Shown in pieces: positions 1,053 to 58,219 of a DNA stretch of 64,000 bases. Origin of the DNA: Rhizaria sp. SCN 62-66. Lineage: Eukaryota. The DNA lies in assembly GCA_001724265.1 (NCBI GenBank), contig MEDY01000032.1:1-64000 (forward strand), read 5' to 3'. Each line of letters opens with the position of its first letter. The stretch's first letter is position 1. A program made the position numbers and the translations under genes. Below the pieces are notes generated by a model. The model saw only the letters and a list, made by a program, of their open reading frames with translations. It did not search any database and was not told where the DNA came from.

Positions 1053-1226
1053 CACTCCCAAAATGCATTAGTGGTGTTCGGGATTCACTTCGAGCAAGGA
1101 TGAATCATTGACTCAAGCACTGTCATAACAACGTCATTTTGCAGCATCATTCAGGTTATGTGCTTAAAAAACGCATTGTGTTACAAATATTGTTTTTAAT
1201 TCATTGCCCTTCTTCGTTTGTCGCAG

Positions 1227-3431
1227 ATGAACCCCACTAAGCTGAGCCACTTCGACGCTATCGTCATCGGCGGCGGCTCCGGCGGTCTCGCGGCCGCCCG
1301 CCGCGCGGCTCAGCGCGGTGCCCGCGTCGCGCTGGTCGAGATGGACGCGCTGGGCGGCACCTGCGTGAACCGCGGCTGCGTGCCTAAGAAGCTGATGTGG
1401 AACTCTGCTGGCATCATGTCGGACATGCGCCACCGCGCCACCGGTTTCGCCGTCCGTGGCATCGACGCCAGCGCCGCGCACTTCGACTGGGACGCCATGA
1501 AGGGTGCGCGCGAGGGTTACCTGGAGCGTCTGCACGGGATCTACCTCCGCAACCTTAAGAAGGACGGCGTGACGATCATCCGCGGCAAGGCGCGCTTCGC
1601 GTCCGTGCCCGAGTCTGCCACGGCTGCGCTCGCTGCCGAGGCGACGACCCCGGCCTTCACTGTGCACGTCGACCCCGTGCCGGGCGCGGACATGGGCTCG
1701 CGCACCACCGACGCTGCCTCGATGGTTATGGATACCCCCACCGGCGGCATCGTGTTTGACATCTTCCCGCAGTCGCTCCCGGCGCACGTCTACGGCGCCG
1801 ACGCCGCGCCCTCGGCCGCCGCAAAGGCCGACGGTACCGCCGGGTGCGTGATCCTCGCTTGCGGCGGCGCGCCTGTCCCCGTTTCGGCCCCCGGCGGCCA
1901 CCATGTGCTTGATTCCGACGCTCTCTTCCTGCTCCCCGACTTCTTCTCCAAGTCTCCCAGTCAGCCCCGCGTCGCCGTCATCGGCGGCGGGTACATCGGC
2001 GCCGAGATCGCGTCTCTGCTGACCGCGGTCCTGCCGCAGCGCGACGGCCCCCACGACGCGCGCGCCGGCGGCGCCGAGATCCCGCACCCCTTCATCGGCG
2101 CCGGCCCCGTCCGCTCACCGACGAACGCGGTCACTCTCATTGCGCGAACCTGCGTTCTCTCGTCGTTTGATGCTGATATCCGCGCTGCGCTTCACAAAGA
2201 GCTCTCGCGCGAGTCCATCGGTGTGGTCTCCGAGGCCGACGTGACGCACGTGCTGGCGCTGCCCCGCGGTGTCACCCCGGACACGGCGACTGAGGCACAG
2301 CGTGCGGCGTCCTGCGCGGCCCCCGAGATGAAGCCCAACAACAACAAGGAACACGTGACTGCCACGCGTGACTCGGCCGTCGACCGCTTCGTTAAGGATC
2401 GCGCCAGTGACCTCGTGTACTGGGTGCAAGTCGCAGTCCGCGGCGGTTCTATCGACGACTGCTCGTCCGCCCGCGGCGACCACACTCAGCGTGACGGCTA
2501 CACCGCCTGGTCGGGGCCGTACGACGCCGTGTTCTCCGCCATCGGCCGCGTCCCCGGACCATTTATCCCCGGCATCGACGACCTGGGTATTGCCCGCGTC
2601 ACCCGCAACACCGACCCCGTGACTGCGAACACCACTGCGGAGAACAACTGTGCGGCCCCCGCGTGGCCGGTGCGCGCTGCGATGCTCAACGACGCCCTCC
2701 GCGCGGCCGGGCTGGGCGCGCCCCCCGGGCAAGTGCTGGTTGATACGGCATGGCGCACCTCCGTTGCGGGCCTCTTCGCGGTTGGCGACGTGACCGACAA
2801 GCTGTCGCTGACGCCCGTCGCAATCGCGGCCGGCCGCCGCCTTGCGGACTGGGTTTGGGGCGGCCTGGGAACCGACACCGCGACGGGCGCGGACATGACG
2901 ACAGCGGAGGCGCTCACTGCCGCGCAGGGCGACGTGGCTCGGGCCACGGCGACGTTCGTGCCCGTGCCGATCAGCTGGGACGCCGTGCCCACGGTCGTTT
3001 TCACGCACCCACCCGTCGGGTCGGTTGGGCTGAGCGAGAAGCAGGCGCGCAAGGTGTACGGCGACAACGAGGACGCCGCGGCCGAGGGCGGGGTCAAGAT
3101 CTACAAGAGCGAATTTGTGCCCATGGACAACGCGTTTCAGGGGCTCGACGGCACGGACGAGGCTGAGATGCGCGAGCAGGCGGCGCAGATGACCAACAAG
3201 GGGTATGTGAAGCCGCGCACGACGATCAAGATGGTCTGCGCGCGCGTGCGCAACGCGGCGACGGGCAAGATCGACGAGCGCGTGGTCGGTGTGCATGTTG
3301 TAGGCGGCGGCGCTGATGAGATGACGCAGGGCTTCGCGGTGGCTGTCAACGCCAAGCTCAACAAGAAGCAGTTTGACCGCACGATTGCGATCCACCCCAC
3401 GGCGTCGGAGGAGGTTGTCACGATCGTCTAA
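1227..3431 (+). CDS. GSR: Glutathione reductase-like class I pyridine nucleotide-disulfide oxidoreductase (734 aa, with insertions)
   Basis: GGGSGG FAD loop, redox motif GGTCVNRGCVPKK, NAD(P)H loop GGGYIGAE, AVGDV, LTPVAIAAGRRLA, PTVVFTHPP and C-terminal HPTASEE. ATG at 1227 follows a pyrimidine tract and CAG, so an upstream exon or 5'UTR intron is possible. Ends in TAA. Confidence 0.9.
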   Translation: MNPTKLSHFDAIVIGGGSGGLAAARRAAQRGARVALVEMDALGGTCVNRGCVPKKLMWNSAGIMSDMRHRATGFAVRGIDASAAHFDWDAMKGAREGYLERLHGIYLRNLKKDGVTIIRGKARFASVPESATAALAAEATTPAFTVHVDPVPGADMGSRTTDAASMVMDTPTGGIVFDIFPQSLPAHVYGADAAPSAAAKADGTAGCVILACGGAPVPVSAPGGHHVLDSDALFLLPDFFSKSPSQPRVAVIGGGYIGAEIASLLTAVLPQRDGPHDARAGGAEIPHPFIGAGPVRSPTNAVTLIARTCVLSSFDADIRAALHKELSRESIGVVSEADVTHVLALPRGVTPDTATEAQRAASCAAPEMKPNNNKEHVTATRDSAVDRFVKDRASDLVYWVQVAVRGGSIDDCSSARGDHTQRDGYTAWSGPYDAVFSAIGRVPGPFIPGIDDLGIARVTRNTDPVTANTTAENNCAAPAWPVRAAMLNDALRAAGLGAPPGQVLVDTAWRTSVAGLFAVGDVTDKLSLTPVAIAAGRRLADWVWGGLGTDTATGADMTTAEALTAAQGDVARATATFVPVPISWDAVPTVVFTHPPVGSVGLSEKQARKVYGDNEDAAAEGGVKIYKSEFVPMDNAFQGLDGTDEAEMREQAAQMTNKGYVKPRTTIKMVCARVRNAATGKIDERVVGVHVVGGGADEMTQGFAVAVNAKLNKKQFDRTIAIHPTASEEVVTIV

Positions 3432-6491: not shown

Positions 6492-9156
6492 TTAGTTATC
6501 TCCCTCGTCGAAATCAAGCGCCTTGGTGGCACTCTTCTTCTTTCCGCGCTGGCCGGGCCGCAGCGCGTCGACATCGACATCGTCGCCGCAGTCGAGATAG
6601 CTTCCAGCGGCGTCGACAGCGGCGGCAGTCGCGGTGTTGACGGTGGCGGCCGCGGGCGAGTCAGTCATGCTGACCCCTCCCTGCGTCCGGGCACCAGACA
6701 TCGTAGCATCAGTGGCCGCGAGTCTGGTGTAAACTCTGTCGGCTCTTGACAGCACGGGCGTCACCGCAGCGCCGAGCGCAGCGCCCGTGCCCAATATCGG
6801 CGTCGGTGGCGTGTTCGGCACAGCCGCAGCGACACGCGTGCGCCTGTCGTCGCTGGCCGGGACTGTGCAGCCGGTGATAAGAGCCAACCACTGTTCCGTG
6901 GTGCCCAGCGCGGCCGAACGCGTCTTGTCGTCGTTCTCCTCGTTCTTGATGCACGCCTTGAGGAATTCCTGCGACCGGTGGTACCCGACGCGTGCGTAGA
7001 TCTCACGCTGGTCGGATTCATCGAGCGCGCCTTCGTAGTTGCGCGGGGTGCCTCCCAGAACGTCAGGCCAGAAGTCGTCGGGTGAGTCGTGCAGGAAGTC
7101 GATCAACAGCCCGGCGGTGAGGAGCGGGAGCGGGCCACACATGAATCGCACGTGGGCAACGAGCGCGGCGGAGCACATGGCCTTCGCGCGGCGGTAGCGG
7201 CGCACGAGCTCATCGCACAGAGCCTTGAGGCCGTCGGTGGAGCAGACGTGCGAACCGAAGTGCCAGTGGCGGGCGCCGTCGAGCATGGCGAAAGAGCGGT
7301 GAGCGCTGTTCTCATGTTTCAGCATCGTGTTGATGCCGAGCGAGGAGTAGAGAGCGGCGGAATCGCCGGTCAACGTCTTCGGAGCGGATCCCTTTGTGGC
7401 GGCAGCGTTGCAAGACGCGGCAGTGTCGGCCGAGGCACTGTCAATATTACCAAACGCTTTGTTCCAGTCAGAGGCAGTGCTGTGCATGTCCTTGGCGGTG
7501 AAGCAGAGAGCACTGTGCTCGGCCGGGTCAATGCAACATTGCACGAAAAGACTGTTGAGGCTCTCGTCAGACACGACACGGAGACAGCGGTAGCCGCACG
7601 CACTCGGCTTGATCATCGCAGTGGGCGTGTGACAGTGTTTGTGACCGTGTCCGTGCGCATGGGCGTGGGCATGCGCGCCGTGGCGTGCCGGGTTGACCGC
7701 GGTCATGGCAATCGCACCGGCGGGCACGGTGGACGTGAACATCACAGGCCGCATGTCGCCAGAGCGAGCACCCGATGGCGCCACAGGCTGCTGCTGTTGC
7801 GCAGCGGCCGTGTTGCTAACGCTCGCGCACGAGACCGCGGTGGCTGTGAAAGCACGGGACACACGTGAGATCTGGAGCACACCCGCCGCACCAGTGCCGG
7901 TTCTGACAGCGTCTCTCGACGCGACCGAGCCGTCATCGACGTCGTCGGTGTCGCTGTCGTTGGCGCCACCGCCGCCAGCCGCGTTTGTGGTGCCGGCCGC
8001 GTACGGCCCGGTCAGAGCAGCGGCGGCGCTGCCGATGTTACTGTTGGCGGTGAGGCTCAGCTCGCGCATGGACGCGATGGGCGTGCTGACAGTGTTGAAC
8101 AAGCCCGTCTTGGCGGCTTGATGCATCGACTGCTGTTGTGCGATCGGGGGAACGGTAGGGACACGCGGATTAAACGTCCTGTCGTTCGCAGCAACGCTAC
8201 TATTCGAGTCATCATGAGCAGGCACCGGCGCGCTGCCGACAGAGAGCAGCGACACACATTGGCGCAGCATACTCGACGACGGAGTCTCCGTGTCGGCCCT
8301 GTTGGCCGCCGCAGCGATCGCAGCAGCTGCGGCGACAGCCGCGCTCGACGCCGCCGCGGCGGACGAGCTCTGCCCAGCGACGTTGGCGTGAGGGTGGCAT
8401 CCAATGGCGACAGCCGCGGCAGCGGCAGCGGCGCCGGCCGGGGTGGCCAGTGCCATGCGACTGACGCCGCCGCCGCTGGATGCAACAGAGGGCGACTGCA
8501 TCGGCATCGCGCCAGACCGCGCAGTGTCGAGGCACGTCGTGTTGAACGAGTCGTTGACGTCCAGCCCGAGCGGCGCCTTGTAGCCCGCGGCGAAAAACGA
8601 CTGGTCGCCGATGACGGCGGTGTTGGCAAACGTGTCGTCCTTGTCCTCGTCCTCGTCGTTGTCATCGCCGCCGTTGCTGCCGCCGGACGCGCGACGCGAG
8701 TTAGCAGAGCCCTTCGGCCTCGCGGCGTTGCTCGCCAGCGCGACAGAGTCCGGGACAGATTCGACGTGGCGGTCGTCATAGTCGGAGTCCGACAAGTCAA
8801 CTGCCGCGCACGACGACCGGCGGCCGCGTACGGCAGCGAACGCGGAGATGTTGCGCCGGCCGTAGGATACGCTGCGACTCGTGTCGCGCACGGTCGCGGC
8901 GGTGGGCGGCCAGATGGTGCCACTACTGGGGACAGTGGTTGCGGTCAACAATGAGGTGGAGGAACCGGCGCCCGCGAACGTGCCCCCGCCCCAGGCGACG
9001 GCCGTAGCCTCGGCGCCCTCAGCGATCGTGTGCAGCGCGAGAGAGCCATGGGCGTCGTCGCCCATGCTATTGCCAGCAGCACCAGTAGCGGCGGCAGCAG
9101 CGGCGACGGCGTTCGCGGAGACAGCGCCGGGAGCAGCGCCGTCCACGGTGACGCCA

Positions 9157-9187
<31 letters not shown>

Positions 9188-12100
9188 GGTCGGCCAAGTC
9201 GGCTTGCACAGTGAGATGCCGCGGCGGCAGCAACGCGGCGTCGTGCCCGTCGGCGGAAAACGCACGACGCGACGAGTACGCCGCCGTCGCCGTGGACCCA
9301 GTGCCCGCCCCCGCGCCAGCGCCGGTGTGTGAGTGCGCAACGCTGTAGCGGATCGAACGCGCCTTGGAGCGGCAGGTGAGGCTACTCTGGCCACCGCTGC
9401 CGCCGGCGCCGCCGGAGCTTGTGACTGCGGTCGAGTGCCTGCGACCGACGGCGCCGTTCTCCGCGTAGCTGCCGTCAGCGATTCCACCGTTGCCGCCGGA
9501 GCCAGAGAGGCAGCACTGCGGGTCCCCTCCGTCGAGGCAGACTCGCGGTGTGGCTGAGGCGTAGCGCACACGGGACTTGTCGCCGCCCATCACTGAGTCA
9601 GCCGAGTCACCCTGCAAACCATGTGCACCGCAGCCGACGGCGGTGGACGTCAGCGGGCCCGAGAAGCTATGTGCGCACTGGTCCACCACGCCGGCCCCGC
9701 CGCCGCCGTGCAGGGCATGGGCGACCGCGACGTCGAAGCTGGCCGCCGAGTGCGGGTCCGCGTACGAGAAGCTCGTCGCGGACCGGCCGGCGGCGTGCGC
9801 CGCGCTGTGCATGTTGGCTGCGACCGCGTGCTTCGAGTCACCCGCGGCGGCGTCAGCGTCGGCGCCGGTGGGCAAGGAGGAGAGCGAGTGCGTCAGGCCC
9901 GGCACGGCGAGTGGGACTTGGGCGTGCGCGTGCGTGCCGGAGATGTTGTGGCTCCCCAGCGCAGGCGCGGCGGCGGCGCCGGCGGTGGCGGCGTGCGACT
10001 GCCCGTAATGCGAGGTGTTGCAGCGGTACTGCGAGGGGATCGCAGACTGCGAGCGCGTCACAAGTGCGGCGTACGTGCACGACTGCGGCGGATTCGACGC
10101 GTTGAGAGGTTTCTCATCGGCTAAACGCGGCCAGTGTTTGTTGAGCAAGCACTTGATGCGCTAGGAGTGCCAGTAGAAGTTGTCGTTACTGAACGTCGCC
10201 GAGTAGAGACACTGAAAGCGCGTGTCGAACATCTCCATGTAGTACTGCGGGGCGCAGAGATGCCGGAACTCGTGGTAGAAAGCGCGGTACCCGCCATGCA
10301 TCACGACGACTTCGGGGAACGACAAGTGTGGGCCTTGGTTGTGCAGCTTGTCAAGCTAGCTGAAGAAGTGGCACGCGCGCGGGCCGCGCAGCCGCGAGTA
10401 CTCGCAGTGAAACACAATCGCGAGCGGGCACTTGACCGTCTGGCGAAGGCCCACCTGACCGGCGGGCACCGCAGGCTACCCCGGCGGCAGGTAACCGGTC
10501 GGCGGCGGACTGTTCTGCACACCGCTGGCGAACGCGTTCGATGTCGCGCCGCCGAGCGCAGAAAACATGCCAGGGGCGCCGGGCGCGGGCGCGGCAGCGG
10601 AGGCCGCGTTGGAGGCCGTGGCGCGGCGCGGGTTAGCGGGCGTCGCGGGATCCCGCACGGCAAGGGAGACGCCGCCCATGGAGAACGCGCTGCCCTGGGG
10701 CAACTGCAGCGAACTACTGCTGTTGTGGTCGCTGCTGCCGCTGTTGTTGTTGCTGTTGTTGCTGTGAGGCGGACACGGGGTGGCAAACACGCCGGCGTTG
10801 ACTCTGTTGGGATTACTGGGACTGCTATGGACGGAGCCAGCAGCAGCAGGGCCGGTCACGGTAACGGAGGTCGCAGCGCCAGCCGCAGCGGCGTTGGCGC
10901 TCTGCTGCTGCTGCTGCTTCTCCTGGTCACACTTGAGCGGCATCAGCGCGGGGTCAGTGACGTATGCGTAGTGCTGGCGGAGGCACCTGTAAAGAGCGCA
11001 GAGGGCTTCGGGCTTGTTAATGTTAATTGCGGAGACAAGATGCCCGTTGTCAAATTCGTACAGAAAGCGCATGTCAACAATCAGGAACTTGCCAATATAC
11101 TTGTCGTATTTTCCGCAAATAAGCTCCGCAACGGTGTCCTTGGTCACACGCTGCACGTTATATACCGTCTTATTCTTTTCTGCGGGGTCCACCGGCGGAT
11201 AGTGGCGAGGGAGAACCCGTGTATAACCGTTGCCATCCGCGCGTGGCCCGAAGACAAAGACGCCGTCTTGACCGATGCCGTCGAGCGGGCGACACGCGCG
11301 CTCCGCCATGGGCACCGTCTAGGACGGCACTTGCGGGACGTTGTTGCTCTGCACGCTTTGGATGGGCGCGGGCACCGGCGCGGGGGGCACGTGCGGGGCG
11401 CCGTTCGCGGTCCCCAGTAGCGGGGGAATCATCGTTCCACTGTTGGCAGGAAGAGAACAACTATTGTTGTTGTTGTTGTTGTTGTTGTTCATGGTGGGAT
11501 ACCCGGTGCCAGCGGACGAACGTGCAAAGAACGATTTGTGTCCGGGCACACCGTCGATGGTGCCCGCAAACGGCAGGCCTCCATTATGCCCGAGACTGAC
11601 GCCGTTGCCGGCCGCAAGCGCGGCCGCAGCGGCAAGCACGCCGTTGGTTGGCGAGTTCGTCGGCGTTGTGTCGTTGCACATGTTCGCGCTCACAGACAGC
11701 GGTAGCACGCGCGCCACGGCCGGGAGGCTCCGAGTGCTGTCGCTGACGAGCGGCGCGGGCGCGGGCGCGCCGGCGGAGGCGCAAGCTGCAGCCGCCGCTG
11801 CTGCCATGTTGGCGGCATTTGAGTAGACGGGGGCCTGCAAAGGCATGACGTATGACAGCGCCCGTCCTGAAGCGGATGGCGCCTTGGCAGGCGTCACCAT
11901 GCACAGCCCCGCCTTCGTGGAAGACGGCGACGCACCGTTCGACCCTGTTGCGGAGGCCATGGGGCTCGCTGAATGCCGGCGTGACACCTCGAACAACTGG
12001 CAACTATTCGCACCCGAAGCAGCGGCGGCGGCGGCGGCTGCGACGGCGGCGGCGCTGGCGGGGGTACAGGCGCCGCTGGGGACGTTGCGCGTGAACGCCG

Positions 12101-13514
12101 AGCCGATGCCACCGACAGCGCGACCGAACGCGGGGCCTAGCGACGGGGACGACGGAGCGTTGACGAAGACATTGCGACGTGCGAGGGCGCCGGAGCTGTT
12201 AAGCGTCTCGACGTCGGTGTCGGTACGCGGGTGGCCGGCGCCCATTGTCGCGGGGGCGTCGTAGGACGCATGCTTGTTGATGCGAAACTCAACGCCAACA
12301 GCAGCAGCCGCATTCGCAGCCGTGGTGCCAGCGTTGACGCCGTGGCTACTCCAGGCGCTGGTGATGCCCCCGGGGTTGTGTGTCGAATGATTAAGCTTCG
12401 ACCCAGCGCCGCGTTGGTCGTCACACTCGTCTTCATCGTCGTCGTTGTTGTTGTCGTCCTCGTAGTCGTCATCGTCGTTGTCGTTGACGGGGTAGATGCT
12501 CGCAGTATCTTCAGTCACCGAATAGTCGCCGTACGTGCCGCCGCCGGGCGGGCCGGTCATTGCGCTTGAATCGCCGCCGTCAAAGTTGAAACTCGCGAGA
12601 CCGCCGGCGCCGGCAGTAGCAGGTCGCTGCATGACACATGCGTTGTTGTTGATGTTGTAGTTGTCCAGAGAGTCGCCAGCGACGATTACACCCCCGACAC
12701 CCGCGGTTGTCGTGACGATGGCCGCGCTGGACGACAACTGCGCGGGCGTGTCAGCTGCCCCGGCCGAGCCAGCCAGCGAGAGCGTTCTGACCGCTGTGTA
12801 ATTCGTCGTCGGGGCCAGCTGAGACCCGAGCGACGGCGGCTGTGACGGCGCGATGGACTGTGAGTGCGAGTGGGTGTCCGACAGAGTCAACGAAGCGGGG
12901 TTCGCGTTCCGTGCTGCTGTTGCGAGGCCGCCGTTGTCGTTGGAGCTGAGTGCTAGAGACACAAACGGTGTCGGAGACACGTACCCGCTGGCAAATCTGG
13001 CCCCACCCACACCGCTGCCACTGATGTTGTTGTTGGCTTTGCTCATGAAGCCGCCACCGTAGACGGTCGTCGCAGAGGGCGTGATCGCAACCCGTGACGA
13101 GAGAGTCGTCTTGACGCCGGTCTGAGCACCGCCGGGGCCCTCACTCGCCGCATCACTATTGGAGACGTGGCACAAGCACGCGTGCGCGGCATAGCCCGAG
13201 AGACAGCCGGCGCCCGTCATCGCCGCACCGGTGGCGGACGAGGATGAAGAGGGCGACGCGGAAGAAAGAGGGCGCTTGAGAGCACGTGCGGAGCCGGTGA
13301 CAGAGCTGCTGCCCGTGGTCGGCGGAAGCGTCGTCGTTGCGAGACCGCTGTCGCCGCCGAGCTGAAAGTCACCGGGAGAGCCCGCGCCGACAACGCCGCT
13401 GTTTCGGTGTTGCGCACGGCAGAAGGCGTCGGACTGCGGAGAGGTGAACTCGGTTCGACTGCGCAGTGGTGCAGCAGGGTCTCGATCCCCCGGGTCGCGG
13501 CCCGAATGCGACAT
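6492..13514 (-). CDS. CDC25: Cdc25-type dual-specificity phosphatase (rhodanese fold), about 2340 aa, read through four in-frame TAG codons
   Basis: ORFs 11319-13514, 10476-11315 and 6492-10148 share one frame and are separated only by TAG at 11319-21, 10476-78, 10356-58 and 10161-63. Motifs: FLIVDMRFLYEFDNGHLVSAINI, active site VFHCEYSRLRGP (HCx5R at 10386-10409, absent from the ORF track) and LSFPEVVVMHGGYRAFY...LCAPQYYMEM. Ends in TAA. Confidence 0.88.
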
Positions 13515-15150
13515 CGTGGTTCACACAGCGAGTCAAAAACGGAGGCGCAAGAAAAAAGACTGACGGGGGTAGTCCGCGGCCGAAGCGTAGGAAGAACCGA
13601 GTTTGTTCCGGGGCGGGACGGCAGAGCCGAGCGTTGCTAGAGGAGAGTGTCAGTCACGACTGGGACTGTGTCAGGAGAGGGAAAAAGAAGGGTAGTGGTT
13701 GATAACCACTACAAAACAGAAGAAAACACAATATTACAATATTATGCACAATGAACGCGCAAAAGAATGCAAATGTGGCACCATGGGTGTGAGAAAGAGT
13801 ATGGTAAAGTGGAATAATAAGTGTAAGTGAGCCACCCCTTAAGCATGGTATCGAGGTAGGCGGATATTGAGACTTTGGCAGCAATAACCGCGCATAAAGC
13901 AATAAATCTGCATATTAAAAGAACATAACTCAGTTTTAACAAGTAGTCAGTCTTGACTAATGTAACGAATTATCTAACCGGAAAAGACCTGGAAAAAACC
14001 CTCACCAGGCTCGTGTCGATCTGTAATGAGATTTTTCCCCAAGCCATTTCAGCACCAGTCCAAAGGCATAGACAGGGATACTTTGTAGGGACATGCTAAA
14101 CAGTCGCACATCCACCATAGCAAAACCGCATGCGCAGATGACACAATCCCGGCGTGATGCACGGGTCGGGAAATTCGGGGATGCCCCCCCTTGGGTGGGG
14201 TGCTTACCGGCTAACTGTTAGTCGTGATAGAAAGTGGTCGCGATGTCTTCGTAGAAGGATTACTTCGCTGCTGAGTGGAGAGAGCGACGAGGAGTCGGCT
14301 GCTATCTCCGTAGTCAACTTTAACAGCTCCAAGCAGGCGCTTGCCGTCGACAAATGAATGGTATATCCCGGTATGATATGTTCCTGTGAGGCTAGATGTA
14401 TATGGTATTTGTGATATTGCTTGCGCGCATATCCTACCCGGTCTATGCTGCTCTCGCAGATTCGTCTCCAGAGGGACGTCGCTTGCTCCTCCTCTCACAT
14501 GTTATTTGCAAACCACGGCGGTGTATATAATTTCAGAGTTCACTATAGTTTGGATATGGTGTTTTTCATGTGTGTACATCTCATGGCGTGCGCTGTGCTT
14601 CTCCCAGATTGATGTCCTTCTGTACTAACGCTTCATGGAAGTGCGATGCTTTTCACTGATCCACGCGCGTCTCGTCAACGCACGCAACAATGGATTCATA
14701 CGCGCACCTGTCAAGCGTGGCAGGATCCTCAACGACATGATATTGTTCTGCGGTTTGCTTTTTTAAGTTAAATTTCACTCACGGCTTCTTCTAATCTCGT
14801 CTACCCTGTTCTCGGTGCCCTTTCTCCGGTCACCTCCTTCGTAGCCCTCGCTTCCCTCGCAGCGCACGTTCAGGTCCCCAACGCTCTACAATACTCACTG
14901 AACGTTGAGCAGGCGTCTATTTCTTCCTTGCCCGCAATCCTGTAACCGGTAGTTTTTCGTGTGCACTTACTTCGGTCTAAGGTTCTTGTCTTTTGCTGTA
15001 TCGACAACAAAGACAACTAGTCTCAACACACTCACACACACACACGCAGACGCGCACTTAACTCTGCGGCGCACAGACACGACACGCACACCGTGACTTG
15101 AGCTCAGTCATCTTTGTTTTTGTGAACGCACAGCAACCACAGCTTTCAGA

Positions 15151-16034
15151 ATGTCTAACGCGAAGGACAAAGTCAAAGTTGTTTTGCTCGGCAAGTACTC
15201 CGTACGTTATCATTAAAGCAAAGCTTTGTCTTTTTACATTTAGATAACTTCCTCGATCTAAGCCCACGCCTCTGGTTTATAATGTATGCTGTTCGATTCT
15301 TACTCACTCTTCATTGTTGTCCCCTTTGTATTCTGCTTTTGTTCGTTCATGAAATCATCGCACTGCGTGTTCAGGCCGGCAAAACGTGTCTGATCGACCG
15401 CCTCGTTCACGAGCGCTTCCTGGGCCCCACGTCCTCTACCGTCGGCGCCGCCTTTAACGCCTTCGACGTCCCTCTCGACCCTCGCGGTGCCAAGAAGCTC
15501 ACCCTAGGCATCTGGGACACCGCGGGCTCCGACCGGTTCGAGTCCCTCACGAAGCTCTACTACAAGGACGCCGCCGCGGCGCTTGTGTGCTACGACCTCA
15601 CCGACGCGGACAGCTTCGAGCGCGCCAAAGCCTGGGTGCAGCGTGTGACGGAGACCGAGGCCGCATGCCTCATCGTGATCATTGGGACGAAGCTCGACCT
15701 AGTCGACGCTGGCGGCTCCCCGCGTGGCGTTCCTCTTTCACAGGCGCGCGCTTACGCAGCGAGCATCAACGCGCAGTACTTCGAGTGCTCGGCCAAGCTC
15801 GAGGATCAACTTCCCGGTGGCTGCCGCATTGGCGAGCCGTTCGAGTGGGTGGCGCGCGCCGTCGCCGCCAAGAAGGACGCCAAGTCAACCGCGGGCGCGG
15901 GCGGCGCTGCCGGCGGCGCCGGGACCGGGGGCGCCGGCGCGGGCGCGCAGGGCGGGGCTGCGGGGCAGCGCGCTGGGGCAACGGCGGTGCGGCTTGACAG
16001 CGCGGGCGAGCGCTCGCGCGGGCCGTGCTGCTGA
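15151..16034 (+). CDS. RAB24: Rab24-like small GTPase; exons 15151-15201 and 15375-16034; 236 aa
   Basis: Spliced P-loop VKVVLLGKYS/AGKT. TVGAAF, LGIWDTAGSDRF (Ser in place of Gln) and GTKLDL (Thr in place of Asn) are Rab24 signatures. ECSAK and a C-terminal CC prenylation site are present. Ends in TGA. Confidence 0.85.
15202..15374 (+). other. Spliceosomal intron of Rab24 (173 nt)
   Basis: GTACGT...TTCAG. Removal restores the GxxxxGKT P-loop. Confidence 0.9.
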
Positions 16035-16364
16035 ACGCTCCAAATGGGCTCAAGCCTCCTCTTTTTGTCTTGCGTACCATGAATGGCCGACTCGCAAATA
16101 TACTTTGAATTTGTTTATGTGATGATTTTTAAGCAATATATATTAGAACGTGTTTTCTATTTTGTTTTGCATGTGATTGATGATGGCCATGCACGTTGCT
16201 TGCGTTAATTAATACAAAGTACCTACGCATATCACTTGAAGGAAGCAGTGGCAGAGAGATGAAAAGAAAGCTAATGTATCAAAAGACGAAAATGAATCAT
16301 CGTCAAAACTAAATAGTTTAAAGTGTTCTAACGTAATGTAGGCGGTCGACTATTGCAATTGCTA

Positions 16365-19300
16365 TTATATTTGCTCCTGCTGTTGTTTCTCGTTTGCAGC
16401 AGCACCTGAATCCCCCGCAGCAGCAACCGCGGCAGCTGCCGCAGCAGCCGCTGCAGCCACTGCAGCCGCAGCCGCAGCGTCGGTAACCAACGTCGTTGCG
16501 GCCGGTGGGGGCGCCAACGACACGGGCCCAGTCCCGGGGGGCACAGAGGGCGCGGCAGACACTTGTGCTGCGCCGGGTGCCGCGGTCAAAGGCGACCCCT
16601 CGGGCGGCGCACTGTGTGCTGTGCCGCCAGAGAGTGCACTGGTAGGCGCAGCAGGTGATGTGCCGGGTGGAAGTGGCGCGGCGTTTGCCAGCGACGGGGC
16701 AGCGGTAGCTAATTGCGCAGTCCCAGCTAATTGCGCAGCGTGCGCAGCGCTCTGCAACTGTGCCGCCGCAGTCTGCATTTGCGTCGCGCTTGACAGCTGC
16801 GCAGCTGCACCAGGCAGCGCACTGGTCCCCGGCGGCAGCGTGGTCGCTCTCGGCAGCGCCGCGGAGCCGGACGGCAGCGGCGGTGCAGCGGCTGAGAGCA
16901 CGTAACCAGCCGGAGGGAGCCCGTGGCCGTGCCCGCCCTGTGGCGGCGGCGGGTGGCCGGGAGCGTGGCCGTAGTGATTCGGCGGCAGCGGCGGGTACAT
17001 CGGCAGCCCCAGCCCCGTCATCATCGTGATTGGAATCGGCAGCTGCCCGTATAAATGCGGCGGCGCGTGCGGCGGCCCGTGACCGTGGGCGTGACCGTGG
17101 GCGCTGGCGGCCGTGACCGGCAGCGCGTGCGTCGGCATTCCGGGCGGGAGCCGCATGGCGGCGTGTCCCTGCATCGTGTGTGCCGGTAACGCGTGCCCTT
17201 GCGCGTGCAGCGCGTGTCCCTGCATCGCCGCGGCGTGTCCCTGCATGTCGCGGAACAGCGCGTCGCCCATCCCCGTGGCTGACTGAGGGTGCGGCACTGG
17301 CGGCGGCGGCGGCGGCGCAGTGTGGGCCACGGGCGCGACAGAGCCGCCGCCAGCAGCACCGGCTCCTGACGCAGCGGCGGCGGCTGCGGCGGCCACGGCG
17401 GCGGCGGCGGCGGCGGCTGCCGCGGCGGACGACGGCATCCCCGAGTGCGTGTGCGCGTGTGCGTGAGGGTGCGCGTGGGCCGCCGCATGCACCGCCGCGT
17501 GCGCCGCGTGCGAGTGCATGTGCGAGGGATGCACCGGGAGCGGCATGAACTCGGCACCGGGAGCCATCGCCATGCCGCCCGCTGCTCCGGCCGCCGCAGC
17601 CGGCGCCGCAGCGGCGGGCGACCCAGCGCTGTGCGCGCCGTGGGCACCGGGGCGGGAGCTGTCAGCCGCTGCGGCGACACTCCGACCGGGCGCGGCGCCT
17701 GTGGCTGGCGCGGCCGCAGCAGCGGACGGCACAGCACCAGCCGAGGCCTTCGCGGCGGCGAGCGCTGCGGCTGCTGCTGCTGCTGCTGCGGCGGCGGCCG
17801 AGCCACCGCCGGAGACCTGCTGCGGCGCTGCGCCCGTGGCTGCTGCTGCGGCTGCAGCGGGGCTGACGCCCGTGAGGGCAGCGACAACATCCCTGTTGTA
17901 CGGATCGTTAAAAGCAATCGCTGCGGTGACGTCGTCGATGCCGAATGTGCGTGTGTGATACTTATCGAAACATGTGATGCAGAGCGGGACGTTGCAGGCC
18001 TTGCAGAGCAGTCGCGTAAGATACTTGCGTTTGTCATCTGGGGTCTTGAGCTTCTGGCAGTGCTTGCAGCGGCGAGATCCCTTTGGCAGCCGCACGGGCC
18101 AGTGCTGCGCGTGGGGCGGCACAACAGGGATATGGGCAACACGGTGTGCAGAGGACGCCGCAACAGACTCGTCGGCAGCGGCAGCGGCGGGCGCGACGGC
18201 GCGGCCGGACTCGTCGACGGTGACCCGGGCGTGCGGGGGAAATTCGAAGAACGAGTGCAGAATGCTCAACAGCGCCTCGCCAACTGGTGGCGACGACAAC
18301 ATTGATGACGACGATGATGACAACAAAGACGAACCCGTTGCCGCTGCAGAAGGTTGAGTCGCAGCTTGCGATGATGAGGACGCTGCAACAGCTGCTGCTG
18401 CGGCGGCGGCCGCGGCAGCCGCTGCTGCCGCAACGGAGGTCGGCCCACCCGAGGCGTTGCCACCGGGGGGCATCACCCCGTGCTGGTGGACGCTGCCGCC
18501 GACAGTCCGCGCCAGACCCGGGTGCAGCGCCAGCCCAAGCGCACCGGGACCGGCGGCGCTCGCGGTCGCGACGGTGCCAGTGCCGCCGCTACGGCTGAGG
18601 GACTCGAGAGGCGGGGGCAAATGGTCGACGTCAGAGCTGGTGCCGTAGCCGGCGGCAGAGCCGTTCGCAACGTCGTTGCCGTCGGTCATTGCAATCGCCC
18701 TGCCAGTGTGTCCATCTCTAACGCTGGTGGTGTTGTTGCTGTTGTTGTTGTTGTTGTTGTTGTTGATATTATTGTTGTCAGAGCCAACATGTTCGTGACC
18801 GTCGTCGCTGTCAGAAGCAGCGTCGGAATGCTCGTTATCATCGTCGTGGTCACTAGCATAGTCGCCTTCGTCAGCACCGTCATCGCTATTCATGCCGCTA
18901 TCATCATTTGAAGGGCGCCCAGTTCGTGAACGGCCGCCGACCGCGCCGTTGTGAGCACGCTTCAGTCCTCGACTCTTGTGACTCTGCTGATGTTGCTGTC
19001 GGGCAGCAGAGGCGGCATATCCCAAGTGTTCTGAACCGACACGATGCACCTGTTGCAGTTGAACTGGATGTTGATACTGGTATTGAATCTCATGCTGTTG
19101 ATACGGAGGTACTGCCATCTGTTGTCGCTGCACATCAGTCGTCGCCAGAGTCGGCATCAGCGCACCTTGCGTCGCAGTCGCCACACTCCTGAACGCAGCC
19201 GCGGCCGGACACGCGTTGGGGTCGTGGCCGATTTGACCACACAGGCGACACGCCTGCTGAAGCGCGTGGTTGCGGCCGGCAGCACTACCGTCATCACTTG

Positions 19301-20180
19301 CGTGTGCAGCAGCAGCAGCAGCAGCGCTAGCGTCGGTGCCAGAGCCAGGAGCATTGCTGGAAACGGTTGGGTCAGCGGTAGCTTGTGCGCTTGACGGCCC
19401 GCTCACAGATTCGCGAGCTGTCAAACCCTGCTTGCTGACTGAAGCAGAGCTAGTGCTGTTGTTTCCGACTGTGGCATCGTCGTTCGAGCCGCCACTGTCG
19501 CCAATGTGGGGTGCAGTTGCGCTCGCCCCGGCAGTTGCACCAGAATTGCCACTGGGAGCGGTTGCGCTGTTGCCTTCTGCGGCCGCTGACTTGGCTGCAT
19601 CAGCTGCAGAGTCTGCGGCCGCAATAGTCCCGGTCGAGGAGACGCCAGAGGGCACGGGCATGAGAGGCCCCATGGACGGGAAATGATGACCGTGTGCGCC
19701 AGAGGGCCAAAAGGCGGGCCCGTACGGAGGAACCGGGTGACTGTGACCGTGGGTGTGGCTGAGACCAGCAGCAGCAACAGCAGCAGCCGCGGCGGCGGCC
19801 GCAGCAGCGGCAGCGGCGGCGCCGGTGGGATTAGGATAAGGCAGCCCCGCCCCGGCCGCGGCTGCGGTGCCAGACGCGGCGGGCGGCGGCGGCAGCGGCA
19901 GGCTGTGGCTTTGACCGGTCTGGTGAGCGTGTAACTGAGAGTGTGAGAGCTGTGGCGGCTGCAAGTGACCGTGGGTGAGATGACTGTGTGCATGCGCTTG
20001 CTGCAGTGCCATCGGCGCGTTCTGATGACCGTGAGCAGCAGCAGCGGCAGCAGCGGTCGCAGCAGCAGCAGTGGCATTAGAGTGAACATGAGACGCCAGT
20101 GGATGCGATGCCAGTGTTGCACCAATACTAGCCTGGGCAGAAAGCGCTTGGTCGAGCTCAAGCTGTTGTTGTTGTTGTTG

Positions 20181-20219
<39 letters not shown>

Positions 20220-21227
20220 TTGTTGTTGTTGTGCCTCTGCGTGGCCGCTGACACTCTCGTTGCCGGCGATGGTGGTGTGGCTGCTACTGCCCTTGCCGTT
20301 ACTGCGAATGTACGCAGCGCCGTAGTGGGACAGATATCGCGGACATGTCTTGGAGTAGTGGCCCAGTCGGCCGCAGATGCGGCACTCGTGCGCGCGCCGG
20401 CCCGCGACCCCGGCACCGTTGGCGCCATCAGCGGCGCTCGAGTTCGAGGCAGCAGCACCCGAAGCAGCGCCAGGGCCGGTGCCGGAACCGCCGGAGTCAG
20501 GAAAGACAGCGGCGTCCGCGGCGGTGGAGTCAGGATCAGTGAACGCAGACGGTAGCGAAGGCGGGGCCAGCCGCGGCTCCACGTTGTTCGCAGAGGCCGC
20601 GGACGATGCGGCGGCGGCAGCAGCGGCGGCAAGCGCGGCAGCAGCAGTCGTTGCTGTGCTGTTTGCATCCGCGCCAACACTGCGGCTGGGGAAAGTGTCG
20701 GCTGATGCGTTGCGCTCGACAACACCGGCATTGGTGGTATCCCCGACCGCGGCAGCAATCGCAGCGGCCGCGGCAGCAACTGTCGCCGCCGAGGTAGGAG
20801 TAGAAGAAGACCCAGACGCGGGCGCATCAACCCCAATGCCGCTGCCCCCGCCAACCCCATCATCATCGCCGTCGTCATCATCGTCACTAGGATTGCCGCC
20901 GCCGTCCCCATTGCCGTTGCCTGCAGTGTCCGCGGCGTCCGCGGCGTCCGCGTCCGCGGCGTCCGCAGCGCCGGCGCGGCGCGGGACCCGCGGCAGCCCG
21001 GCGGCGCGCGCGGGGCAGGAACGCGCCGTGTGGCCGGCGCGCTGGCAGTGCGAGCAGCTGTACTTACCGCGCGGGCCGCGCCGCTTGATGGCGCGGCGCT
21101 GCTACGCCGGCAGCGGCACCACCGCGACGCCGCCACTGGCAGCGGCGGCGGGCACAGCAGCGCCGGGGGCGGGGACGAAGAGAGCGGCGGGGGCCGCGCC
21201 GGTGGGGTCTGTCATGGCGGAATACCC

Positions 21228-21258
<31 letters not shown>

Positions 21259-22139
21259 GTGGCGGCAAGGGTTGCGTGGTTCGCGGCGTTGAACGCGGCC
21301 AGCTGTTGCTGCTGTTGTTGCTGGTGTTGCATGTGTTGTTGTTGGAGGAGGTACAGCTGTTGCACAATACCGGCATTTGTGTGCGCACTAGTGTCAAGAC
21401 CAGAGCGAGATCCAACAGAAGTCCCTGTGACTACTGTGTTCAAATGTTCCGTTGCTGAGGCGGCACCCGTTGCTGCTGCGGCGGGAGCGGCTGTCGCTTT
21501 CTCAGACAGCGCAAGCCTGGTCTCCACAGCGGTGGGCGCGGCAGCAAGCGGCGGCAGCGTCGTTTGAGTAGGGGCAAACAGGCCCGGCACGCCGGGACCC
21601 TGTGCCAGACCCGGAGCGCTCGCCGACGGCGGCGCAGGGGCAGCACTCGGCTGGCGTTGCTCCGTCGAGTCTGAAGCGCGCACGGCAGCCGCAGCCGCAG
21701 CAGCAGCGGCGGCGGCGGCGGCGGCGGCGGCCGCTGCAGCTCCGGATTGCGCTGCAGAAACGTCTGAGACTGTGATCGGCACTGGGGCTGAGACAGGAAC
21801 GGACACGGAGGCCAGTGGGACCGAGGCGGAGTCAGGACGGTGGGAAATAGCCGAAGGTGGTGTCGGAGAGCCGGCTTGTGGGGGGATGGCGTGGGCGGTC
21901 AGAAAGCGGTCGACCTGAAAATGAGGGGCAATGCAAATGACATCATAGGGGCCAACGTGCCGAGACAGCGAGGAATCAGGGAGAAAGCAGGGATACGTGA
22001 AGGATTGAGATAGGAAAGGGCGAAATGCGTTGCGGAGAGCTGCTGAGTTGAAGAAAGGGGGACGTACAGTGAGTATGGGGCCAGGAGCAAGGGCATCAGT
22101 GCCGTGATAGGGCGCAATGCCGCTCGAAGCGTCTGCCAT
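16365..22139 (-). CDS. Low-complexity nucleic-acid-binding protein with three CCHC zinc knuckles and a piggyBac-type cysteine-rich domain, about 1924 aa, with one in-frame TAG at 21102-21104
   Basis: ATG at 22139 (MADASSG). The frame continues past the TAG into QRRAIKRRGPRGKYSCSHCQRAGHTARSC and on into ORF 16365-20582. Knuckles lie at 21015-21056, 20343-20384 and 19209-19250, and the Cys-rich motif at 17952-18104. Ends in TAA. Confidence 0.75.
20164..20232 (-). repeat. CAA/CAG trinucleotide tract encoding about 23 Gln
   Basis: (TTG)n(CTG)n(TTG)n on the plus strand. Confidence 0.9.
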
Positions 22140-26700: not shown

Positions 26701-29700
26701 CTCGCCGGCGTCTTCCACCAGCACACCGACGGCGACGGCCGCGGTGGCGCAGGCGGGCCCGCTATCGCCCGCTGCGGGCGCTGCGAGACGCGCGCACTTG
26801 TCGGGGCCCGATACGATGCCCGGCGTCGAGCGCAGGGATGCTGAAGGTGGTGGCCAATCAAAGGGGCCCGACGTGGCGTCCTCGCAACTCACGTTTGTGC
26901 AGCAGCTGTTCGAGCAGCAGCAAGTCCAGCAGCAACAGCAGCTGTTTGGTGTCAGATCGCTGCAGACCCCGACGGGGCCTGTGACGGTCAGAGTCCCCCC
27001 TGTCAATTCTGCGTTGATGGCCTTCACCGACCAGTCCAACAACATGCAGACGCATGCTGAGGCGCAACCGCCCTCGCCACAACAACTACAGAGTCATCAG
27101 GCTGCGTATGCGAACGGGTATGCGCCCGCTTTCAGTGGCGACCTGTCCGTGCCCAAGGCCGTCGCCCTGATGCAGCAGTTGACGCAACTGCTCAGTGCGA
27201 TGCAGCAGCGGCAGCGCGAGCTCTCTCAGGGCGGTGCCGCCATCAGCAACAGCAACGGCGCAACTGGTGCGAGCAGCAAGCATAACAACGGCAACGGCGG
27301 ACGCAACAGCGTGAGCAGCCAGAGCCAGATGCGTCACAGCGGCAGCGGTAACGCCAACGCCAACGGCAACGGACACAGTCGCCAGACCCAGCAGCAGGGC
27401 TCTGGGCCGGCGTCGGGCGGCTCTCAGGCCACTCACGGTCAGTCTTTCGCCGCTACTGCTAACGGCGGCGGTTGGAACGTGAGCCAACTGGGCCGGCGCT
27501 CGCCCACAGTCACCACAGGCGGGACGCCGCTGTCGGTGCCTGACGACCACGTGATTGACACGGTCATGGTGAACGGCGAGCCAGTGTCGTTTATTCGCCG
27601 GGTGACGCCGCGTGACGCGCCCTTCACGCCCACCTCTGCGACGGGCAACGGCAATGCGATGCAGACCGGCAACGGCAGCCTTTACGACAACATCGACAAC
27701 ACTAACAACAATAACCGCGGCAACAGCCCGAACGACGGGATGATGGGCGCCAACGTCGTCCCTGTCGTTGGCCCCGGCGCCGGCGGGCCCCCTGGGGTCG
27801 GGTCTCTGCATGTCAACGTCAACGCCAGCAGTGTTGGCAGCAGCGGAAGAAGTATTGCCGCCGTCAGTGTCGGCAGTGGGTTCAATGAAAGCGGCCCTGT
27901 CGTCGGTGGCACTGGGAGTATCACAGTCAGTGGCGGCAGTCAGCAGCTGATGTTGACGCCGACGCAGTTCACGCCAGCGCTCACGATCACTTCCTCCGTG
28001 ATTACAAATGGCACGGCCAGCGGCACTGGTGCTACGCCGCCGGACGCGACTGGGTCTTACAGCAGCCCCGGCACTTCCGGTGGCACGTCGGTCCCCGTGC
28101 AAAGCGCCGCCGCCGCGAGTGGCGGCCAGTGGGGCGCGCAACACACAGGCGCGACTCCGCGGCCGCCGCCCGGGCTCCCCGGAGGCGGCGCGCCGCGGCC
28201 GCTCAACGTGCGCCCCCCGCCGGTCCCCGCGGCCGCCGGCGGCGGAAACGGCTCCGGCTCGACGCCTCCACTGGCGCCCGCAGGACCCTTGTCGCCCACA
28301 TCGCTCAACAGGACATCCATCGCGTCTCCTATGGCAAACAACAACGTCAACAGTCACACCGGCTTGCACGCGAACGTGAACATCAACAACCAGAGCAACC
28401 TCAGCAACGGTGCCACCACCGCCGTTGCGATGGCTGCGACCGCGGGCAGTGTGTCGACGTCGCAGGGCTCGTTCCGCTCCTCTCTGCGCGCCACAGGCCG
28501 CTCGGCTACCGGCGGCTCCGGGCTACCCGCGCTCAGCGCAACCGGCTCTTCGCACAGCATCGACGGGAGCTCGAGCTCCGGTGCCGGCGGTGTCGGCGGC
28601 GCGCCGCAGGACGCTGCCGTGCTGAACGCGGCGACGGCGCACGCGCTGATCCAGGTCATGGGCGGCGCGGCACTGACGCCGGAGCTGCTGAGCCAGCTGG
28701 CATGGCTTGTTGAGACCCTGGCGCCCAGCGGTCAAGCGCAGGGGCAGACACAGCAAACACTCGCGTTGCAACAGATTGCGGGCAACCCGGTTTCGGTTGT
28801 GAGCTCCAACGGCAGCAGCTCCGCAGCGGGGCTGACCGCTGGTGCGACCAACGCCGGCGGAAATCTCCAGTTGTTCCCATCGCAGTCGTATTCGTCATCG
28901 TATAGCGCCAGCGCGTCGTCCGCGCTTGGCAACGCCGCGGCCGCGCTCGCTGCACATGCCGCCGGCTCAAGCTCTGGCGCTGGCACAGGCTCTGGCACTG
29001 GACCAGCTCATGGCACTGGCGCTGGGCCAGGCTCCGGTTCGGGCTCCGGCTCGGGCTTCGGTGCTGGAAGTGCGGCCTCGTTTGTCGACGTTTTAGCTAT
29101 GGGTAGAGGACCGTTGACACACAACCGCAGCGCTTCCATCAGCAACATTAGCCTCGGTGGCTACCAACAACAACAACAGCAACATCAGCAACAGTTTGCT
29201 CCGGGGCAGCCACAGCACCAACAGAGACCGCACGGCGGTCCCGCGTCTGTGACCGGCCCGAGCCTCAACACGAGCCCAAACGTGCCCGCAAGCACGATCA
29301 GCGGCCCGCGCGCCGCGGTCGGCGTCGCAGACACTCCCACCCCGCCGTCCGCGGGCGGCGCTTCCGCCGGGGCGGCGCTGGAGCATATGCTTTCGCAGGG
29401 CGACCAGCAGTGGGCGGGGCGCGCGATCAGCCCGCCGCAGGCGCTGCAGCTGCAGCTGCCCGCCACCCTGTCTAGTTACGCCACGGGCTTGCGCGTCACG
29501 CCCCCAAAGTCACCGTCGCAGCCTCAGTCTCAGCCGCAGCAGCAGTTGTCGCAGACGCAGGTGCTGAACTCGGCGCTCCTAGCGCTGCAGCAGCAAATCC
29601 GACAAAATGCGGATGCGATTCAGACTGCATTGGCGCAGGCTGCGATGCAAAGCAACGCTCCCAGTTCGATGACGCTGCAGCAGCAGTACCAGCATTAGCA

Positions 29701-35700: not shown

Positions 35701-35985
35701 CGATAGCGAATGCGAGGTCGCGGCCTGCGTCGCGAGCGCCGACCTGGACACCGACTGGCTCAGCTCGAACGACGTCGACGCCGACGCCGACGCCGCGGAG
35801 CCCACGATTGCGCGCACGCGCGCCGAGACCGAGGGCAATGCGTCTCTGCGCTTGCGTGTGGGTGGCGAGCCCAGCGCCGCCACAACGGGGGCACTCGTGC
35901 CCGGCAAGGTCTCGCGCGCCGCGACAGTCGTCGTCACGGGCGGGCCGGCCACCGGCGAGACGCTGAGCCCGCGCCTCCACCGGTT

Positions 35986-36021
<36 letters not shown>

Positions 36022-36439
36022 GGCTGGGGGTGGCGCGGCCGGCGTGCGAGGCGCGCGGCCGCTGCCGGACAGCGCGAACTCGAGCTCGGGAGTGGCCACC
36101 GCGGGTGGCGCCGCTGCGGGACGGGGCCTGAGAGCCAGCGGCGGCAGCGGCGGGCCCGTGCCAGGCCACGGGCTCGCGCCCGGCGTAGGGCTGGGTCTGC
36201 GCGCTGTGTCCGCGGCCGCAGGCGGGAACTGGGACCGCGATAACCTAAGCAGCAGCGCTGAAGAGAGCGGTTGGGAGAGTGACGAAGGCTTCGGCGACTT
36301 GAACGAGGGCGTTGAAGAGGAGGAGCCCGAGGAAGACGGTGACGGCGACGGCGAGGCCGACGGGGCTGCTGCAAGCGACGACGAACGCGACGGCAGTGAC
36401 TGGAGCGAAGAGCACCAAAAGAGTGACCAGGACCTCTGA
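23737..36439 (+). CDS. Giant Ser/Thr protein kinase, CaMKK/SnAK-like, with predicted N-myristoylation and palmitoylation; exons 23737-23884 and 24015-36439; about 4190 aa; in-frame TAG at 29696-29698
   Basis: Starts MGACVSK. ORFs 24029-29698 and 29735-36439 are in frame and joined by TAG CAG GAG TAT CTC GCC TTT (CAG)6. Kinase motifs: LGRGSYGLV, VIKSI, HPGVVKLLDVV, LVLEYLPGGPV, HRDVKPENLL, LADFG, GTLPFMPPE, DAWAAG, GKLPW. Ends TGA TAA. Confidence 0.8.
23885..24014 (+). other. Spliceosomal intron of the kinase gene (130 nt)
   Basis: GTACGG...CATAG, pyrimidine-rich. Removal puts the MGACVSK exon in frame with the long ORF. Confidence 0.8.

Positions 36440-58175: not shown

Positions 58176-58219
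<44 letters not shown>

Follow-up and report, generated by a model that had tools for sequence, protein, structure and literature searches.

In-frame TAG codons in a Cdc25-like gene and two other long genes suggest sense decoding of UAG in a rhizarian from wastewater

Very few eukaryotes are known in which UAG is the only codon affected by a change of the nuclear genetic code. Here we describe a stretch of 64,000 nucleotides (contig MEDY01000032.1, positions 1 to 64,000; called the window throughout) in which a Cdc25-like gene of 2342 codons contains four in-frame TAG codons. We consider it likely that UAG is a sense codon in this organism, that UAA and UGA are its terminators and that the Cdc25-like gene is intact. 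The closest described case is the rhizarian exLh (Sainouroidea, Cercozoa), in which UAG encodes leucine and genes stop at UAA or UGA (Panek et al., 2017, PMC5304391). The sections of that paper used here report 384 in-frame UAG codons in 71 genes, which terminate with UAA (56) or UGA (15), that is with 79% UAA. UAG is scarce in the ribosomal protein genes of exLh and common in its proteasome genes, and it is perhaps translated less efficiently than the six standard leucine codons. The proposed mechanism combines a tRNA carrying the anticodon CUA with a release factor by which UAG is no longer recognised, the tRNA awaiting a genome sequence (PMC5304391). Guttulinopsis, the closest sampled relative of exLh, appears to keep the standard code according to the same sections, which describe the Sainouroidea as free-living or coprophilic. 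They also list Iotanema spirale (Fornicata), where UAG encodes glutamine and UAA is kept as a stop (PMC5304391). Ciliate reassignments, in the excerpts used here, likewise show that UAG can change its meaning separately from UAA (PMC11687900, PMC10553269).

Ten genes were found in the window. They code for a glutathione-reductase-like protein, the Cdc25-like protein, a Ras-like GTPase, a zinc-knuckle protein, a kinase, an alpha/beta hydrolase, a Brix protein, a chromo-SNF2-PHD helicase and two proteins without an assigned family. Altogether they comprise about 16,200 codons with six in-frame TAG codons and no in-frame TAA or TGA; as terminators TAA is used seven times, TGA three times and TAG never. 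To compare the DNA behind the two kinds of stop, a codon-usage score was trained on the TAG-free genes and calculated in all three frames past each stop. Past all six TAGs the score of frame 0 is positive and the best of the three, the G+C content at third codon positions (GC3) is 0.70–0.92, and no TAA or TGA occurs within the next 60 codons. Past all nine TAA and TGA terminators scored (the TGA of the Ras gene was left out) every frame scores about −1, GC3 is 0.30–0.45 and more stops follow. The spacers and the intron of the window are AT-rich in general (GC3-equivalent 0.30–0.45), and the genes are 1500–4150 codons long, carry Ala, Gln, Ser, Gly and Asn tracts and have a GC3 of 0.65–0.90. 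Owing to this difference, coding and non-coding DNA are easily separated here. With six occurrences (about 0.4 per 1000 codons), TAG is about as frequent as the rarest ordinary codons, ATA (10) and TTA (13).

A seventh apparent in-frame stop, TAA at 58602, is located inside an intron. Through this intron the chromo-SNF2 frame (58647-63998) and the PHD frame (55298-58489) become a single helicase gene, and the related protein P0274 (2839 residues, 90% identity) has no break at the junction. It is the only intron that was mapped exactly, and the surroundings of the TAGs show nothing like its AT-rich sequence. Protein homology on both sides of an in-frame UAG is available at one site, which lies in a conserved domain; at the five further sites the codon bias continues in frame.

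The window organism resembles exLh, as far as the sections used describe it, in several respects. Both are rhizarians, only UAG is found in frame, its use is uneven among the genes, and the stops are only UAA and UGA with UAA in the majority (79% in exLh, seven of ten here). UAG is far commoner in exLh, with 384 codons in 71 genes compared with six in about 16,200 codons of the window. Leucine was demonstrated in exLh, whereas the one informative column of the window has no leucine in 149 rows. In addition, exLh was found in an insect and is represented by transcripts only, while the window is genomic DNA from wastewater and bioreactors. Iotanema spirale is likewise a UAG-only case, and its glutamine would match the polar character of the Cdc25 column, but it belongs to another eukaryotic supergroup and the two window genes that could be placed point to Rhizaria. 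The ciliates are an unrelated lineage as well, in contrast to the GC-rich window with its long genes and rhizarian named relatives.

The Cdc25-like frame has its first ATG at codon 3 and ends with the TAA at 6492-6494. It contains no frameshift and no in-frame TAA or TGA, and its sole interruptions are the TAGs at codons 734, 1015, 1055 and 1120 (Table 1). Cdc25 phosphatases dephosphorylate Thr14 and Tyr15 of Cdk and drive entry into the cell cycle. We searched all PDB chains (phmmer) with the 385-residue stretch that 10164-11318 encodes on the minus strand, X standing for TAG. Sixteen PDB sequences matched at an expectation value (E) ≤ 1. The top 12 are catalytic domains of CDC25A, CDC25B and CDC25C (E 1.6e-22 to 1e-19), and each of them aligns in two stretches, query residues 55–107 and 299–364/368, so that similarity to both halves of the domain was found in all 12. 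Pfam by itself is weak: Rhodanese (PF00581) is recognised in the N-terminal half only, with 23.6 bits at a cut-off of 22.2.

The first-pass annotation had proposed a hidden Cdc25 active site on the minus strand of 10161-10478, with one TAG inside the catalytic domain. The translation agrees with its peptide letter for letter and has stops at both ends and one inside. The second of the two stretches aligns ungapped through the TAG column. Glu is the residue of the human chains there, in agreement with the Cdc25A segment to which the annotation had aligned its peptide. Each side of the TAG was also used as a query of its own, to keep the score of one from helping the other. The 39-residue piece upstream alone matched seven CDC25 sequences (E 0.0013–0.0033), its residues 18–38 aligning with 92–112 of 1ym9. 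The 64-residue piece downstream alone matched 12 (E 4.4e-7 to 1.2e-4), its residues 2–47 aligning with 116–161 of 1ym9. These alignments leave exactly one residue of the chain, 114, for the TAG. It therefore fills a single alignment column of the catalytic domain, 15 residues past the intact HCX5R motif, as had been claimed, and the match lies far outside what chance would give.

Table 1. Features of the window that are relevant to the reading of TAG. Positions are those of the window; halves of the domain are numbered by query residue.
Feature	Position	Strand	Basis
Cdc25-like protein with long low-complexity arms, frame of 2342 codons	6492..13520	-	frame; codon bias continues over every TAG
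TAG, codon 734, about 55 codons upstream of the domain	11319..11321	-	frame and codon score
N-terminal half of the catalytic domain, residues 55–107	10998..11156	-	independent E 1e-5 to 4e-6; Pfam Rhodanese
Low-complexity, GC3-rich in-frame insertion of about 190 residues between the domain halves	10425..10997	-	contains TAG 10476-10478
TAG, codon 1015, end of the insertion	10476..10478	-	frame and codon score
C-terminal half of the Cdc25/rhodanese domain, residues 299–368, TAG inside	10215..10424	-	independent E 3.6e-14 to CDC25C
HCX5R motif H-C-E-Y-S-R-L-R, intact	10386..10409	-	translation and PDB alignment; C, E, S and R the same in all rows of the 38-sequence alignment
TAG, codon 1055, a single column of the helix that follows the active-site loop	10356..10358	-	register of the PDB alignment
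TAG, codon 1120, directly past the domain	10161..10163	-	frame and codon score; followed by 1222 GC3-rich codons in frame
TAG, codon 392 of the zinc-knuckle protein gene (16365-22277)	21102..21104	-	frame and codon score
TAG, codon 1905, Gln-rich stretch of the protein-kinase gene (23984-36439, 4151 codons)	29696..29698	+	frame and codon score
Intron, 157 nucleotides, AT-rich, GT..AG, phase 0	58490-58646	-	joins SNF2 and PHD frames in phase; relative unbroken over the junction

Conservation around this TAG was analysed with a full HMMER search of 1.84 billion representative sequences. With the C-terminal half as query it gave 2001 hits at E ≤ 0.001. The query was aligned with the best 150 of these 2001 hits, resulting in 162 rows. 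The TAG column is filled in 149 of them (148 proteins), and of the 13 gapped rows one is the fragment from the window itself and 12 belong to a repeat protein. Where conservation reaches 85% or more, the query agrees with seven of eight columns before the TAG and with 13 of 14 behind it; in the remaining column behind it, Arg is changed to Lys. A second alignment of 38 sequences (MAFFT) has 16 invariant columns. All of them are kept in the query, seven past the TAG. Conservation thus continues beyond the TAG, as the first-pass annotation had stated. The N-terminal half has D-M-R where the other sequences have D-C-R, the D (residue 82) and the R (residue 84) being invariant in the 38-sequence alignment. 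The repeat protein (P0126, 839 residues) consists of about 13 tandem repeats of 62 residues, each similar to residues 50–91 of the C-terminal half (42% identity), and looks like an amplified piece of a related gene that was read as protein.

The residues found in the TAG column, whose tabulation the first-pass annotation had called for, are N (30 rows), K (27), E (24), S (20), Q (17), R (11), A (8), D (5), T (4), V (2) and G (1). The column is variable and hydrophilic with 11 residue types, Leu does not occur in the 149 rows, and one of the two Val rows is a rhizarian, Paulinella. In a profile made from these 149 rows the probabilities are 0.126 for K, 0.118 for E, 0.094 for S, 0.091 for N, 0.085 for Q and 0.032 for L, which makes Gln about 2.7-fold and Glu about 3.7-fold as probable as Leu. 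The column tolerates many residues; it leans against Leu only about threefold and would count as weak evidence. The earlier statement that the site argues against Leu or Trp was too strong with regard to Leu. Leucine is a tentative possibility that falls short of an even chance, put forward on the precedent of exLh, the sole rhizarian UAG reassignment published so far; Glu, Lys or another residue, judged from the column, would be no more than equally tentative. Glutamine appears somewhat more doubtful. These gradings are our own estimates and not computed values.

Judged by its offset from the HCX5R motif, with the numbering counted from Cys473, the TAG column is presumably Glu489 of CDC25B and would lie between R488 and R492. 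Both residues, together with Y497, are remote substrate-docking hotspots of CDC25B according to the part of the source used here (PMC6406801). Among the 149 rows, Arg is found in 148 at R488 and in 145 at R492, and Tyr in 104 at Y497. In the window protein these three positions are Ser, Lys and Gly and thus differ from the Cdc25 hotspots. In comparison with human CDC25A, CDC25B and CDC25C (3op3, 1ym9, 1c25) the window protein has the HCX5R loop and both rhodanese-like halves in the same order. It differs from them in the insertion of about 190 residues between the halves, in the interior instead of C-terminal position of the domain, in Ser/Lys/Gly for R488/R492/Y497 and in D-M-R for D-C-R. The active site of the product of 6492-13520 is that of a Cdc25, whereas the way in which it docks its substrate may be different. 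We file it as Cdc25-like and not as a proven Cdc25.

The best real Cdc25 match in the library is P0125 from Mataza sp. D1 (Cercozoa, EukProt), with 53% identity over the C-terminal half and E 5.3e-20. It is also a long protein (1418 residues) with an interior domain, and it has Gln, Arg and Trp at the three hotspots, so that the hotspot Arg and Tyr are absent as in the window protein. Unlike the window protein, P0125 is without a large insertion at the corresponding place, has an ordinary codon (Asn) in the TAG column and carries a C-terminal arm that shows no similarity to that of the window protein. The domain of the window protein is located in the middle of 2340 residues. The arm of 1222 residues after the fourth TAG was compared with two long Cdc25-like proteins, P0166 and P0125, and no homology was found (best E 1.4 and 2.9, respectively). 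It matches no Pfam family and reaches Atlas scores of at most 0.82, which is noise level. Large insertions are general in the proteins of the window, the other genes being 1500–4100 codons long and Ala-, Gln- or Ser-rich. In the public protein collection, the Cdc25-like gene is present only as fragments that are cut at the TAGs (P0123, P0124 and P0394 with 277, 46 and 54 residues).

The stretch is present in 13 listed public sequencing runs from eight studies and several years, the samples being from bioreactors, wastewater and sludge; the small-share runs X8–X13 are uninformative on habitat. For four runs, contigs (not reads) were compared with 10001-30000. In DNA run X3, from a study other than the likely source, a contig covering 10223-11449 has no differences and includes three TAGs, and a further contig (28213-30000) covers the TAG of the kinase gene. 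Run X5, which is labelled as cDNA, has a contig (10203-10712) with two TAGs and again no differences. The TAG at codon 734 is covered by one contig each of X5 and X6. The X5 contig and the first X3 contig are also collinear with the insertion between the domain halves. In the polyA RNA run X7, pieces lie within the Cdc25-like gene at 11504-11860, 13047-13295 and 13313-13673, and a contig (29142-29727) carries the kinase TAG without differences. No variant letters were reported at any TAG in the contigs of the four runs. The identical TAG sequence in independent contigs excludes a sequencing error, and UAG is likely retained in transcripts. Two intergenic bins (14003-14669 and 22674-23340) have a depth of zero in X5, X6 and X7 but of 2.9–6.6 in DNA run X3. 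This is a weak hint that X5, X6 and X7 may be RNA, which we do not count as evidence.

Several observations weigh against sense decoding or call for caution. There are six TAG codons in all, and a single one of them falls into a conserved domain, where its column is variable. At this GC-rich codon usage, 64% of the single-base routes to a stop give TAG, so that finding TAG six times out of six has a probability of only about 0.07. The complete lack of TAG among ten terminators has a P of 0.02–0.11, depending on the expected share. Four of the six TAGs fall within 387 codons of one gene, which is unexpected for an even spread of TAG (P about 6.5e-4 with a rough correction), and this clustering also fits a damaged gene. 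Two of the three docking hotspots of CDC25B are missing, as Ser stands for R488, Lys for R492 and Gly for Y497. No close Cdc25 relative for a codon comparison was found in the representative library, where the best match has 53% identity. Concerning transcripts, the X7 contig of the kinase gene ends 29 nucleotides past the TAG, where 31 were taken as the minimum for bridging it; X5 and X6 are flagged as "probably DNA", and no listed piece of X7 covers the TAGs of the Cdc25-like gene.

Some of these points would suit a young pseudogene, that is a decaying Cdc25 copy in which the four TAGs are nonsense mutations and the other two TAGs are separate accidents or gene boundaries. Four stops are found in one gene and grouped around its domain, TAG is the commonest nonsense product, which gives four TAGs out of four a probability of about 0.18, and the protein no longer has an Arg that is nearly invariant or a Tyr that is conserved. 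Yet Mataza lacks the same Arg and Tyr (it has Gln and Trp), so that these changes look like divergence of the lineage and not like decay, and the query retains 20 of the 22 strongly conserved columns. A stop would result from only about 2% of random substitutions; four stops would therefore imply some 180 substitutions and several indels, but no frameshift is found in 7 kb of indel-prone low-complexity sequence. Two more long genes have a TAG with coding signal on both sides, and none of the ten terminators is TAG. For these reasons we regard a pseudogene as improbable. The TAG in the catalytic domain had been put forward as the strongest single proof of sense decoding. It does support such decoding, but a single site does not by itself distinguish it from a young pseudogene, and the case thus rests on the difference between TAG and TAA/TGA across the whole window.

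C at the position following the stop codon weakens termination in eukaryotes. C is the next base after five of the six in-frame TAGs, compared with one of nine real stops with context (one of these was later found to be intronic). The probability of at least five in six is 0.005 with the overall first-base frequency and 0.039 with the frequency after NNG codons. This would be compatible with programmed or leaky readthrough, in which TAG is still a stop, a near-cognate tRNA reads it in a weak context and a little full-length protein is made for regulation; the great rarity of TAG and its accumulation in a dose-sensitive regulator would also fit. However, four successive readthrough events per mRNA would leave almost no product unless each is nearly complete, and nearly complete decoding at four TAGs amounts to sense decoding. 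TAG is moreover the normal terminator of none of the ten genes, and no stimulating RNA structure was found, since none of the six stretches of 120 nucleotides past the TAGs beats its shuffles (z −0.43 to +1.49). Readthrough is likewise an explanation to which we give little weight. Removal of the TAG as part of a small intron or by editing, or an error in the assembly, is the least probable of all and seems very remote. The organism does have introns, but the CDC25 alignment needs exactly one residue at the TAG, and the mapped intron of 157 nucleotides is AT-rich with GT..AG ends in contrast to the GC-rich surroundings of the TAGs; the view of the first-pass annotation that no intron lies at this site is thereby confirmed. 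Further points against a removed, edited or misassembled TAG are that an independent DNA run and X5, labelled as cDNA, both have contigs of identical sequence and that no variants were reported at the TAGs. Sense decoding of UAG remains the reading that we prefer.

The affinity of the host was analysed with two genes. Among 18 Cdc25 hits that were looked up three are named, and all three are cercozoan (Mataza sp. D1 and two from Paulinella chromatophora). The SNF2 region of the helicase has relatives at 90, 79 and 76% identity. In a FastTree tree of up to 121 sequences, from which rows with more than 30% gaps were removed, it falls into a clade of 22 tips with a support of 0.997. The six named tips of this clade are all Rhizaria, among them Amorphochlora, Gymnochlora, Mikrocytos and two from Nonionella; oomycetes come next. 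Judged from these genes, the host is an uncultured single-celled rhizarian that recurs in wastewater and bioreactor metagenomes, and probably a cercozoan. A trypanosomatid host was considered and dropped, as the flavoenzyme encoded at 1200-3431 is far nearer to glutathione reductases (E 1e-65) than to trypanothione reductases (E 1e-34), the genes switch strands frequently and the named relatives are Rhizaria. A metagenome scan for the Cdc25 gene returned one distant AT-rich homologue with 44% identity and Gly in the TAG column, and a scan of viral contigs for Cdc25 relatives found nothing. A word-indexed protein search for this gene was dominated by low-complexity words and gave the window's own fragment only, and a scan of prokaryote-labelled assemblies with P0276 gave only three bacterial helicase loci at 24–30% identity. 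A literature search for an account of this organism, or of a UAG code in cercozoans or wastewater, returned only the 2017 exLh paper and the ciliate papers.

Other genes of the window show some additional features. The glutathione-reductase-like flavoenzyme (1200-3431, plus strand) has 743 residues compared with about 450 in the solved enzymes, and large insertions break its homology. Its relative with 57% identity is equally expanded (P0004 and its cluster, 708–764 residues). The Ras/Rab-like GTPase (about 15159-15400, plus strand; Pfam Ras, E 1.9e-35; TGA at 16032-16034) begins its match at position 10 of the profile, and a pyrimidine-rich stretch lies directly before the G-K-T motif; a first exon and a probable intron are located upstream. 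A second stop follows within two codons of three out of nine terminators (16365-16367, 36437-36439 and 6492-6494, with TAA-TAG, TGA-TAA and TAA-acc-TAA, respectively), and such doubled stops may be a back-up against readthrough. A tRNA scan and an Rfam scan of the window gave no hits, so that the window contains no tRNA or rRNA.

If UAG is a sense codon here, it would be read as an amino acid at a low frequency of about 0.4 per 1000 codons. The gene at 6492-13520 would then yield one protein of 2340 residues with a Cdc25-type HCX5R domain that is split by a loop of about 190 residues, and the TAG at 10356-10358 would supply one surface residue adjoining the substrate-docking hotspots. By analogy with the published rhizarian case, decoding would presumably involve a tRNA-CUA together with a release factor that does not act at UAG; genes for the two are absent from the window. 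Since the four TAGs lie within 387 codons of a dose-sensitive activator, a rare and probably slow codon may limit its output. The TAG pattern fits the known UAG-only reassignment in Rhizaria, and it could be an independent variant at an early stage. That UAG was reassigned in Rhizaria a second time and independently, with a polar residue such as Gln, Glu or Lys in place of Leu, is in our opinion unlikely, though it deserves mention. In such an early stage UAG would still be no commoner than the rarest sense codons, mostly placed before C, the weakest context for termination, and concentrated in the Cdc25-type activator, whose output would be throttled by slow decoding.

The organism would add to the known cases a rhizarian with in-frame UAG that is seen as genomic contigs of up to 120,876 bases and recurs in public data sets. 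With contigs of this length and recurrence in public runs, the genome, the tRNA-CUA and eRF1 can probably be recovered by binning, without a culture. Standard gene callers cut the proteins of this organism at each TAG, which results in misannotation. The low use and the clustering of UAG would make it a useful case for how a stop codon gets captured.

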